From a virus, in IMG/VR virus record IMGVR_UViG_3300050158_000039, positions 1-28,620 of that record: DNA of 28,620 bases, one strand, 5' to 3'. The notes beneath the pieces were generated by a model. The model was not told the DNA's origin. It did not search any database and saw only the letters and a program-made list of their open reading frames with translations. The position numbers and the translations under genes were made by a program. Below, piece by piece: positions 768 to 25,594 of the stretch (the first letter of the stretch is position 1; each line of letters starts with the position of its first letter).

Positions 768-920
768 GGGGAAGCGTGGAGGACTCAAACCTCCGAGCGG
801 CCATGCGCGCTTAGCCTTTTCTACAACCATTACACGATCAACCATTCGTGCGGCAGGAATCGAACCTGCGTAGTACCATACCGAGTGGGACTCGAACCCA
901 ATACTCTCCTTTACGCTTCC
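768..920 (-). ncRNA. tRNA-like RNA with three T-arm hairpins
   Basis: 8-bp closing stem GGAAGCGT/ACGCTTCC; T-arms at 886-900, 853-869 and 778-794. Confidence 0.65.
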
Positions 921-1857: not shown

Positions 1858-1867
1858 GGCTTTTTTG

Positions 1868-1943
1868 CTCCGCATCTGGGTAACGATCCCAGCTAATCAT
1901 TGATTAACAGTCAAGTCCGTGCACCAAGCTCGAATTCTGCGGA
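1868..1943 (-). tRNA. tRNA-Asn(GUU), divergent, no encoded CCA
   Basis: TTGA-CTGTTAA-TCAA; G discriminator; T-arm CTGGG-ATCGTTA-CCCAG. Confidence 0.75.
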
Positions 1944-1959
1944 ATAGAAATGTATTTTG

Positions 1960-4769: not shown

Positions 4770-5840
4770 CTAACTAGCGTAGATTTGATTCTTCACGGCT
4801 TGAACGCGGTGGTTGATGATCGTCTGACGAATCTGTGATTTATCAGCCACAGACGCAGCCACAGCAGCGGCATCTACTGACTTTGCTCGAGTCAGCACAC
4901 CGTCCAAGCTCGTAGCAACCTTGGGGCCAAACACGAATCGCAAGTATTCGACAGTTTGGTGAACCAATGTGGGGTCGGAGAAAGCACGCATCTGATCCAA
5001 CACCGTCACCTGTTCTTCAGCACACGACCGGTCGAACAGGCGCAATTGAACGCTGTGCTTGCTCGCAGCCAACGGAACACGTTGCATGTCAGACGGGATT
5101 TTACAATCCGCCATTTCTTGCTTGGACATGCCGGCTGCGACCAATGCTACTCGCACATACATCGGCGTACCTGATTCGACAACGGCCAAAAGCGGAAGAA
5201 CTTGGCTGTGTGCGAACGGACGCATGCAATCAACGTCCAATGCACCACATTGTTCGAGTACCCTGAACATTCGATACGGGAGTGCTTCCGTCAGTCCCTT
5301 TTCAATCTCAGCCCAAATCCGTTCACGAGGAACGTACGCCAGCTCAGGTGCAACCTGTCGCATCAACTCCAGTGTGTCATTCGCGACGGTGAAACCATAT
5401 CGAGCAGCGAACCGAGCAGTGCGCAGCACTCGAACAGGGTCTTCTGCAAACGCCACGCTTGTGTGGCGCAGCACACGCTGCGCAATGTCGTGCTGGCCGC
5501 CGTGCGGATCGATCAGTTTGTACGTATCGTCAGTGATGTCAACAGCCATCGCATTGATCGTCAAGTCACGCCGGTACAGGTCATCTTCCAGTGTGATCGT
5601 AGGATCAAACCGAGTCTCAAACCCGTTGTATCCAACACCCGTCTTGCGTTCTTGCCGAGCCAACGCATATTCATCACCGGTTTCGGGATGCAGGAACACA
5701 GGGAATCCTGCACCAACTTGCTGAAAGCCTTGGGCCAGCATGTCTTCTGCAGTGGCACCGACAACCACATAGTCACGGTCCTTCGGCACGATGCCCATCA
5801 CCATGTCGCGTACAGCACCGCCCGTGAGATAAATCTTCAT
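4770..5840 (-). CDS. cca: class II tRNA nucleotidyltransferase (CCA-adding enzyme), apparently without an HD domain
   Basis: [34 protein letters not shown]; start at MKIYLTGG. Confidence 0.93.
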
Positions 5841-5895
5841 AGTAGCTCCTTCTAATGCTCCTCCGACTATAAATAAGATCAGGAGGATTGACAAC

Positions 5896-6681
5896 ATGGG
5901 GCGGAAGCGCATCACACAACAAGAATATATCAATCGCGCAAACAGTATACACCAATCTAAGTATGATTACAGCATGACTAATTACACAACCATGGCTGAC
6001 AAAATTACCGTCAGTTGCCCAACACATGGATTGTTTGAGGTGTTAGCTTCCAATCATGTTAAACAATTAAAAACACCGTCAACCCAACACTTAGCTGCAA
6101 ACGGATGTCCCAAGTGTGGGGTTCTCAGTGTCATACAACGCAATAAGCAGGGGCGGCGCCCCTTTGCTGATTTTGTTAGAGAGGCTGAAGAGACTCACAA
6201 CGGCCAATACCAATATAGTGAGGAGGGTTACCGTGGTGTGGATAACAAAGTAAACATTACGTGTCCACACCACGGGGTCTTTCAGCAGCAGGGGAGTAAT
6301 CACTTGCGAGGTACCGGATGTCCTAAATGCAAGAACTCAAGGGGTGAGACTCAAATTGCTCGCAGCCTGACTACACACGGAATCCCGTACATGCAACAAC
6401 ATAGCTTTGAGGGATGTATTGGCGATGCTGGTAAACCATTAAAGTATGATTTTTGGTTACCATCTATTAACACAGCAATTGAATACGATGGCGAGCAGCA
6501 TTTTCATCCTGTTCGGTTTCATCAAGGTATGACAAATGAGCAGGCCGTCCAAATGTTTGAACGCACTGTTCGCTATGACAAATACAAAGATGCCTTTGCA
6601 GAGACTGTTGGCATCAAACTAATTCGTATTCCATACTTTAACCGTTGCTGGATTGGGGACATTATTGCGGGATTGGTGTGA
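5896..6681 (+). CDS. putative homing endonuclease (zinc-ribbon repeats plus PD-(D/E)xK/Vsr-like domain)
   Basis: Repeated CPxHG..F and GCPKC; YDFWLP...IEYDGEQHF; TATAAATA at 5868-5875. Confidence 0.8.
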
Positions 6682-8869: not shown

Positions 8870-8917
8870 GTCGCCTTGGGGGTGGTTAATTGAACCTATT
8901 TACAACCAGGGGAAAGT

Positions 8918-9097
8918 TTAGCCAAATAATACCTGTTTACCGTCGTTAGTAACGGGCACAATCTCCGCCAACATGCGCTGTTCGGGCGGTAGTTGTAGCA
9001 GTGTTGCCTCTGCTAGTTGGCGCGATGGCAGGTTGATTGCCACAACACGTCCCTGGATGATCACATTGAAGAATGTTTGACTGATTTCTGTAAGCAT
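8918..9097 (-). CDS. small hypothetical protein (59 aa)
   Basis: Hand translation MLTEISQTFF...KQVLFG; GGGAG RBS inside the 9103-9142 hairpin. Confidence 0.6.
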   Translation of the reverse strand: MLTEISQTFFNVIIQGRVVAINLPSRQLAEATLLQLPPEQRMLAEIVPVTNDGKQVLFG

Positions 9098-25398: not shown

Positions 25399-25594
25399 TG
25401 GCGCCGACAGTAGGACTTGAACCTACGACCTTCCGGTTAATTACCGGTTGCTCTACATTATTTGTTCGTGACGTAGAACCTCAGGGGAGCGACCCCATCC
25501 ACAATACGTCCGTGTACAATAACGGCACTACATTCTGTATGTGTTTACGTACGCCACATACAGCTCGTCGTTGCTCCCACTGAGCTACATCGGC
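25399..25594 (-). ncRNA. 196-nt tRNA-like RNA with a ~120-nt structured insertion at the D-arm and a non-canonical anticodon loop
   Basis: Acceptor GCCGATG/TGTCGGC-GCCA, intact T-arm, arm CCGG-TAATTAA-CCGG. Confidence 0.72.

Follow-up and report, generated by a model that had tools for sequence, protein, structure and literature searches.

A tRNA-derived RNA element with three T-arm motifs and histidine-type ends in the tRNA array of a giant phage

Large phages carry dozens of tRNA genes, and these include tRNA look-alikes that are unable to decode. The locus reported here raises the question of what is encoded by 153 nt that lie between a tRNA-Ile gene and a Y-like repeat in such an array, and that display three T-arm motifs within a tRNA-like acceptor stem. 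The window analyzed (28,620 nucleotides) covers the initial 28.6 kb of an IMG/VR contig of 183 kb, labeled G000, with an estimated completeness of 52%; its source is a giant phage, distant kin of the Rak2/GAP32/RsoM2USA group. The element occupies window positions 768 to 920 on the minus strand, and element position n corresponds to window position 921-n.

ARAGORN identifies 52 tRNA genes in the contig, all of them (52/52) on the minus strand. The local order, entirely on this strand, is a tRNA-Ile (1231-1158), a Y-like repeat (copy 2; 1156-1085), a second tRNA-Ile (1078-1005), a tRNA-Ile(GAU) with an atypical T-loop (998-927, Rfam 39.7 bits; encoded CCA at 926-924), the element (920-768), and copy 1 of the Y-like repeat (767-691), which abuts the element and is separate from it. 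The two repeat copies share 82% column identity (copy 2 taken as 1085-1156) and display a compensatory exchange of GAGG/CCUC for GACGG/CCGUC. The element starts 3 nt past the CCA (924-926) of the tRNA-Ile at 927-998 and ends 2 nt short of the Y-like repeat, margins which confirm an earlier remark that it fills this gap almost exactly. In the 3.2 kb scanned, the sole strong promoter-like site on the minus strand lies upstream of the array (3079-3051, 11/12), and the sole minus-strand terminator-like match is weak and falls within Y-like copy 2 (1146-1131). The phage encodes a CCA-adding enzyme at 4770-5933, about 4 kb from the element, and HNH endonuclease genes are found in or near the array.

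The surroundings hold a number of further unusual genes. The leader of the element and its first nucleotides (AACUG-GAA-GCGUA, 913-930) resemble the start of a Y-like repeat (AACUG-UU-GCGUA, 753-770) on the minus strand, a similarity that may have arisen by chance. The tRNA-Ile(GAU) type with the D-arm UAGCUCAGAGGCAGAGCA is present in 20 viral contigs of varied phages (loci L018-L037), in most of which its T-loop is atypical (e.g. GACAUUUCGAAAUUGUC); in L018 the next feature is a hairpin with CUUUCACUGUAAAUGAAA, similar to the Y-like repeats of the window. Just downstream of the tRNA-Asn at 1959-2034, a degenerate second tRNA-Asn(GUU) with the T-loop AUCGUUA occupies 1860-1950 (minus) and is called by neither tool. 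At 25403-25594 (minus) there is a tRNA-like gene of ~192 nt, with an acceptor GCCGAUG/UGUCGGC, a normal T-arm and a GCCA end, in which ~120 nt are inserted within the D-arm region and for which ARAGORN makes no call. Beyond the window, ARAGORN reports an amber-reading tRNA with a CUA anticodon (G000 54164-54239, minus) and a permuted tmRNA-like gene with the tag ANDAFYGEMRLAA (G000 82523-82865, plus).

Every stem, T-arm and hairpin named in a preliminary description of the locus was recovered on the minus strand, and the structural half of that account, a tRNA-like acceptor/T-arm shell with extra T-loop hairpins, is upheld. The shell is closed by the 5' strand GGAAGCGU (913-920) and the 3' strand ACGCUUCC (770-777), which form eight Watson-Crick pairs with no mismatch at pair probabilities of 0.92-1.0; G920 would be G-1 in a 7-bp reading, and C770 is the equivalent of C73, followed by CC (769-768) and then G. 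Stacked directly on this stem is T-arm 3 (GGAGG-UUUGAGU-CCUCC, 778-794; probability 0.75), with U instead of C at loop position 56, and the proposed 8-bp terminal stem on a 5-bp T-arm is thus borne out. The two enclosed T-arms are both there in sequence, but fold very differently. T-arm 2 (GCAGG-UUCGAUU-CCUGC, 853-869) has a probability of 0.95 and is aligned as a T-arm both by the Rfam tRNA model and by the covariance model R1 introduced below, while T-arm 1 (UGGG-UUCGAGU-CCCA, 886-900), with 4 bp and an extension to an A-U pair past a U.C mismatch, folds at just 0.03; it is thermodynamically disfavored against a better competing hairpin of 13 bp, and forcing it costs 2.5 kcal/mol. A mini-hairpin, GGUA-UGG-UACU (872-882), sits immediately 5' of T-arm 2 in the position of a variable arm or mini-D. 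The enclosed hairpins fared similarly: (G)CACGA-AUGGUUGA-UCGUG(U) (832-851) forms at 0.87, its 5' arm occupying the place expected for the acceptor 3' strand of T-arm 2, while GGCUA-AGCGCGCA-UGGCC (799-816), 4 nt 5' of T-arm 3, is present with a probability of just 0.18 and holds the anticodon-arm position, but with an 8-nt loop lacking U33.

The minimum free energy of the whole element is -54.6 kcal/mol (z = -2.05), and 6 of 200 shuffled sequences are equally stable. With the background rate taken from the tRNA-free 60-183 kb part of the contig, the probability of three or more T-arm-like motifs in 153 nt is ~1e-6, and nowhere else in the 183 kb do three such motifs fall within 135 nt; the chance of a perfect 8-bp partner at most 270 nt from a given T-arm is ~0.004. 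The shell is perfect at each of its 13 pairs (13/13), beside adjoining D-like and anticodon-like parts that are degenerate, and the 5' strand pairs with the 3'-terminal strand after T-arm 3 and not with the strand after T-arm 2. The overlapping open reading frames (72, 90, 53 and 78 aa) have no Pfam match. The element is real, non-random and tRNA-derived, and probably an RNA gene.

It should be unable to decode codons. ARAGORN finds no tRNA in the element, also when its thresholds are lowered or introns permitted, and the Rfam tRNA model (RF00005) spans nt 2-69 only and scores 19.5 bits, short of its cut-off of 29; together with the fold, these results define the 153 nt as a tRNA-like element, which no other Rfam family matches. 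The earlier statement that no anticodon arm is recognizable holds insofar as there is no usable anticodon loop, but is too strong, as the Rfam model sets T-arm 1 in that place. A tRNA with one removable insert was considered and rejected, since merely 4 of 5980 internal-deletion variants gave marginal ARAGORN calls. ARAGORN -i proposed a tRNA-Ile whose 42-nt intron extends to T-arm 1; this was also discarded, as the intron-less gene at 927-998 scores 39.7 bits and has its own acceptor stem, and a split tRNA was discounted given that the contig holds no D-arm 5' halves matching the inner 3' strands.

Two non-canonical tRNA-type molecules invite comparison. tRNA-Sec is defined by an 8/5 acceptor/T geometry combined with a UCA anticodon and with a D stem and a variable arm that are both long, and tmRNA by a tRNA-like domain with G3:U70, a tag reading frame and pseudoknots. 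The suggested likeness to tRNA-Sec does not hold: there is no Rfam tRNA-Sec match on the element, the UCA anticodon arm is absent though the 8+5 stack is present, there is no 6-bp D stem, and the tail would not read CCA under the 8-pair reading because the next three bases are CCG. For tmRNA, ARAGORN makes no call on the element, position 3 is an A-U pair under either numbering of the stem, and the sole tmRNA-type Rfam signal on the element (tmRNA_permuted, E = 9) is noise.

The 8+5 geometry itself is present, and is equally readable as 7+5 with a paired G-1:C73, as in tRNA-His. When a 7-nt acceptor strand is assumed, the ends of the element are G-1:C73 (920:770) and then CC. Among the 52 ARAGORN tRNAs a discriminator C with G-1 occurs solely in two tRNA-His genes, both of the form G-1...C73-CCA, and because C73 is confined to tRNA-His here, histidine-type end is the better term for what had been likened to tRNA-Sec. 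The third tail base of the element is G, and a mature CCA end in place of the encoded CCG would therefore require trimming and the action of the CCA-adding enzyme, a need shared by several genuine tRNAs of the phage. The body of the element has a weak similarity to tRNA-His (P ~0.0015 before correction for 53 comparisons). Its 3' half may derive from tRNA-His, which ranks top of 53 tRNAs, but with a corrected P of ~0.08, and tRNA-Pro(GGG) scores nearly as well.

The interior is a mosaic of tRNA-derived pieces. T-arm 2 is identical at 19/19 positions to the T-arm of the tRNA-Pro(GGG) of the phage, and T-arm 1 with its flanks resembles the 3' half of its tRNA-Lys(UUU). In 14 unrelated viral contigs the 17-mer of T-arm 3 forms the T-arm of what appear to be tRNA genes of ordinary length, and T-arm 3 is identical at 17/19 positions to the inner hairpin of a further RNA of the contig (G000 40228-40349); the exact 25-mer of the 3' end has no match in viral contigs. 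Element nt 78-153 comprise a capped stem, loops that contain AUGG, T-arm 3 and the weak hairpin. The sequence after T-arm 2 is CGC-ACGA, and that of the last strand is CGC-UUCC; deletion of nt 69-144, as read from the sequence, would restore a 7-bp stem directly 3' of T-arm 2, and this suggests that the element carries an internal insertion or duplication of ~76 nt.

Neighboring proteins lead to no close phage relatives besides near-identical strains: a 144-aa neighbor protein is confined to near-identical contigs, and the nine near-identical contigs have no variant within the element. A spacing-tolerant pattern for closely spaced T-arms identified a metagenomic contig, L063, in which positions 1352-1403 align with window positions 901-852 at 92.3% identity over 52 columns (blastn, E 4e-13), with two 1-base gaps, both on the window side. 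This is the one true sequence homologue found for the element (n = 1); it covers 52 of the 153 nt and comprises T-arm 1, the mini-hairpin and T-arm 2 (kept block, 852-901). The only other nucleotide match between L063 and the phage is a single 49-nt stretch of 80% identity. In L063 the block is part of a tRNA-like RNA whose closing stem, of 8 bp, comes directly 3' of T-arm 2; ARAGORN calls this RNA tRNA-Ser(cga), reading T-arm 1 as an anticodon arm (CGA). The mini-hairpin is kept as GUAUGGUAC, and two changes preserve pairing: the outer pair of T-arm 1 is A-U in the element and G-C in L063, and that of the mini-hairpin is G.U in the element and C-G in L063.

A second pattern from the element, made of the mini-hairpin and the start of the T-arm, retrieved six RNAs of ~120 nt, five in viral contigs and one in a genome assembly, which were aligned as A3 (L067:2960-3084, plus; L073:3980-4104, minus; L074:12524-12650, minus; L080:6235-6359, minus; L076:2651-2774, plus; L077:2109-2228, minus). 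All share the order acceptor, D-arm, hairpin, inner 4-bp T-loop hairpin, hairpin, AGUAUGGUACU, T-arm and acceptor; the mini-hairpin is invariant across the six, none of which has a canonical anticodon loop. In the acceptor, five of the seven pairs are changed on both sides, and loop position 59/37 of the inner hairpin is A, U or G, which suits a T-loop more than an anticodon loop. Under its curated thresholds Rfam catches one of the six, as a tRNA (37 bits). The preliminary description had held that a lack of both a stable transcript and homologues with covariation would point to debris of decayed tRNA genes; the 52-nt homologue with its two pair-preserving changes answers the second point in part, and the acceptor stem of the similarly built two-T-loop group covaries strongly.

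The covariance model R1, built from these six two-T-loop RNAs, finds its best match in L063 (38.6 bits, E 1.4e-8, full length), and within G000 its best match is 40222-40350 (31.6 bits). On the element it aligns nt 4-77 at 26.6 bits with the D domain deleted; T-arm 1 takes the place of the inner T-loop hairpin and T-arm 2 that of the terminal T-arm. This score falls inside the range of 20-32 bits that R1 gives to ordinary class II tRNAs. The group thus resembles class II tRNAs, R1 alone is no proof of membership, and the placement of the element in the group rests mainly on its link to L063. The element shows the group order of inner T-loop hairpin, GUAUGGUAC mini-hairpin and terminal T-arm, and lacks a group-type acceptor right after the terminal T-arm, where T-arm 2 permits just three acceptor pairs. 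On sequence grounds, we read nt 1-77 as a truncated copy of this two-T-loop, class II tRNA-like design. A circular permutation of the design was not supported, its basis being one 8-mer, AAUGGUUG, and R1 finding no D domain in nt 78-126.

Other RNAs came to light in these searches. Outside the window, the 122-nt RNA at G000 40228-40349 (minus) has, by eye, the same order of parts, with an acceptor GUGAGUG/CACUCAC, a Leu-like D-arm, an inner GGAGG-UUGGAUU-CCUCC hairpin, GUAUGG, a T-arm and an encoded ACCA, and sits among tRNA-Leu genes. Around the GTATGGTAC match in L072, L075, L079 and L078, viral contigs hold minihelix RNAs of ~47 nt that consist of a 6-7-bp acceptor, UAUGGUACUGG and a T-arm only, and that resemble bare tRNA top halves.

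Relatives at 40-53% protein identity have syntenic tRNA arrays, and the slot between tRNA-Ile and tRNA-Thr(UGU) is occupied in three of them by an unclassified RNA with a 7-bp acceptor on a T-arm, starting 2 nt past the CCA and ending in GCCA: L012 7739-8002 (264 nt), L016 8549-8634 (86 nt, two T-arms) and the weakest case, L014 at about 8870-8946 (~77 nt), all on the minus strand. Sequence homology between the element and these slot RNAs was rejected, as the similarity is at the level of T-arms alone, and a double-T-arm pattern from L016 has no match in metagenomes. The slot is empty or otherwise filled in the four other relatives that cover the tRNA-Ile region (L039, L040, L041 and L043). 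A 'three T-arm' RNA flagged by the scan at L040 916-1033 was set aside, its inner motifs being AU-rich chance matches, and the cultured relative RsoM2USA was set aside as a model, having no annotated tRNA genes near its CCA-enzyme gene. The relatives have peculiarities of their own: L039 881-984 (minus) is a tRNA-Asn(GUU) with a hairpin of ~33 nt inserted in the anticodon loop, and L040 1891-2022 and L042 8050-8179 are tRNA-like RNAs of ~130 nt with extra hairpins, the former with CUUUUAA- and CUGUUAA-like sequences.

From this analysis we lean, with modest confidence, towards the view that the element is probably a co-transcribed, anticodon-less, tRNA-derived RNA gene, excised by tRNA-processing enzymes and composed as a mosaic of modules. 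It lies on the same strand as the tRNAs and at tRNA-like spacing, and would be co-transcribed in the array transcript. An acceptor/T-arm helix is nearly sufficient for RNase P cleavage, 3' trimming and CCA addition in established tRNA enzymology, and from this we infer that RNase P, 3'-trimming nucleases and the phage CCA-adding enzyme may cut out one stable RNA of ~150 nt, a proposal for which T4 RNAC sets a precedent. Excision would also free the 5' end of the adjoining Y-like RNA. The likely activity of the product would be to offer tRNA top-half and T-loop modules to proteins that recognize tRNA shape.

The mosaic character of the element keeps the debris alternative alive, and this is the less probable but still serious possibility that the element is a neutral scar of recombination or insertion of tRNA and tRNA-like fragments, transcribed merely through its location in the array, with the closing stem a relic of one ancestral acceptor stem split by the ~76-nt insertion. 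The interior pieces that match other tRNAs of the same phage would be expected here, as would a length of 2 x 76 nt, equal to two tandem tRNA-sized units, and the 7-bp stem that would be regained after T-arm 2 on removal of nt 69-144. Interrupted tRNA genes are moreover common in the clade (window 25403-25594 and L039 881-984), HNH endonuclease genes lie in the array, and the content of the slot varies among relatives. A scar, however, does not readily account for a shell with 13/13 perfect pairs beside degenerate D-like and anticodon-like parts, nor for boundaries flush with the adjoining genes; the 52-nt block is 92% identical in L063, a contig otherwise nearly unmatched to the phage, and similarly built RNAs elsewhere have been kept with covariation.

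A more specific proposal, which we regard as speculative and on balance unlikely, is that the element may mature into a CCA-tailed, and perhaps aminoacylated, imitation of the top half of a tRNA, with a histidine-type end and two to three 'AUGG loop plus T-loop' units, that occupies a host reader of tRNA shape during infection, and that it forms with the two-T-loop RNAs a new functional class of phage tRNA decoys. The repeated units are compatible with such a decoy or titration role, and candidate targets would be a synthetase, an enzyme of processing or modification, or a defense nuclease or transferase directed at tRNA.

It is improbable that the element belongs to a Y-RNA/Ro60 system, in which its T-arm, capped acceptor-like hairpin and D-like loop would form a YrlA-type head on an unusual stalk. 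[quoted passage not shown] The succession of T-arm 2, the CACGA hairpin and the AAUGGUUG loop is similar to this arrangement (PMC4201824), Y-like repeats flank the element, and the relative L042 encodes a TROVE/Ro60 protein. Against this, a 176-nt search yields no Rfam YrlA (RF02553) match on the element at E <= 10, the Y-like stalk motifs UUGCGUAG and GCGACUUUAUCUCA are absent, the GNCGAA motif is not seen by eye, and the 183-kb contig, itself 52% complete, has no TROVE (PF05731) match. The L042 protein (684-2366, minus) is 560 aa long and combines a TROVE (Ro60-like) with a VWA domain.

Least credible is a pair of separate genes, an unusual tRNA-Ser(CGA)-like RNA (nt 1-76) followed by another tRNA-like RNA (nt 77-153), each processed independently: both units are tRNA-sized, Rfam and R1 align nt 2-77 as a single tRNA-like unit and ARAGORN calls the L063 homologue tRNA-Ser(cga), but the reading fails because neither unit closes its own acceptor stem (3/7 pairs in unit 1, no pairing by eye in unit 2) and the strands pair across units instead, while the 5980 internal deletions gave just four marginal ARAGORN calls and a normal tRNA-Ser(CGA) is already available to the phage from 23704-23793.

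Returning to the excised-gene reading, what is new here are the histidine-type ends, the partial homologue L063 and the similarity to an uncataloged two-T-loop group. The design of a tRNA top half around a foreign interior recurs in a giant phage unrelated to T4, and the element is tied to covarying two-T-loop RNAs that Rfam's curated thresholds miss as a family of their own. Together these provide sequence-defined candidates, with precise predicted ends and a histidine-type acceptor, for the study of binding partners. Should such RNAs prove to act as decoys, whether for host tRNA enzymes or for defenses that target tRNA, this would account for part of what phage tRNA arrays carry that does not decode.

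The closest described analogue of the element is T4 RNAC. To our knowledge, T4 RNAC was the first tRNA look-alike unable to decode, and it has had no assigned function for fifty years. RNAC (species 1 RNA, rnaC; 139 nt) is a stable RNA whose function is not known (PMC3014915, PMC9697503), encoded at L038 2909-3047 (minus). Its shell covaries across three Tevenvirinae; the gene is at least 95% identical in most of 748 matching phage records and 97.8% identical in RB69, and in phage EcS1 it lies between tRNA-Phe and tRNA-Trp. It has no Rfam family, its best match being tRNA-Sec at 17.5 bits. Like the element, RNAC is of similar size, sits in a phage tRNA cluster on the tRNA strand, and has ends that form an acceptor-like stem adjoining a canonical T-arm and enclosing non-tRNA hairpins. 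Unlike the element, with which it shares no sequence beyond a 13-nt T-loop stretch, RNAC has an interior of two long hairpins without further T-arms and an acceptor with two conserved U.U mismatches, where that of the element is perfect and histidine-type. By this analogy, we would place the element as a new member, in altered form, of an RNAC-like class of phage tRNA look-alikes.

Comparison with other systems places the element among several tRNA-derived designs. It shares with tRNA-Sec and tmRNA the 13-bp acceptor/T coaxial stack, and with tmRNA a tRNA top half formed by the ends around a foreign interior, but it has no G3:U70 and no tag reading frame, and no pseudoknots were found in it. 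It would resemble YrlA-type Y RNAs (RF02553), which are non-coding, contain T and D modules of tRNA origin and serve as substrates of tRNA enzymes, and it differs in having no Ro60-binding stem or motif and no Rfam match, with no Ro60 gene in the available contig. The eighth pair G-1:C73 followed by CC is that of the tRNA-His acceptor and histidine minihelices, as in the two tRNA-His genes of the phage; the element, however, lacks the GUG anticodon arm and the D-arm, and its third tail base is G, not A. With the two-T-loop group (A3, L063 and G000 40228-40349), all of whose members lie, as it does, in phage tRNA arrays, it has in common a 7-8-bp acceptor on a T-arm, a GUAUGG(UAC) mini-hairpin before a T-arm, and an inner 4-bp hairpin with a T-loop sequence in place of a canonical anticodon loop. 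It departs from this group in lacking the D-arm domain, in the partner of its 5' strand, which does not follow T-arm 2, and in the further ~76 nt with a third T-arm interposed. The link between the element and A3 runs indirectly, via L063, the A3 sequences having been fetched with a pattern from the element itself.
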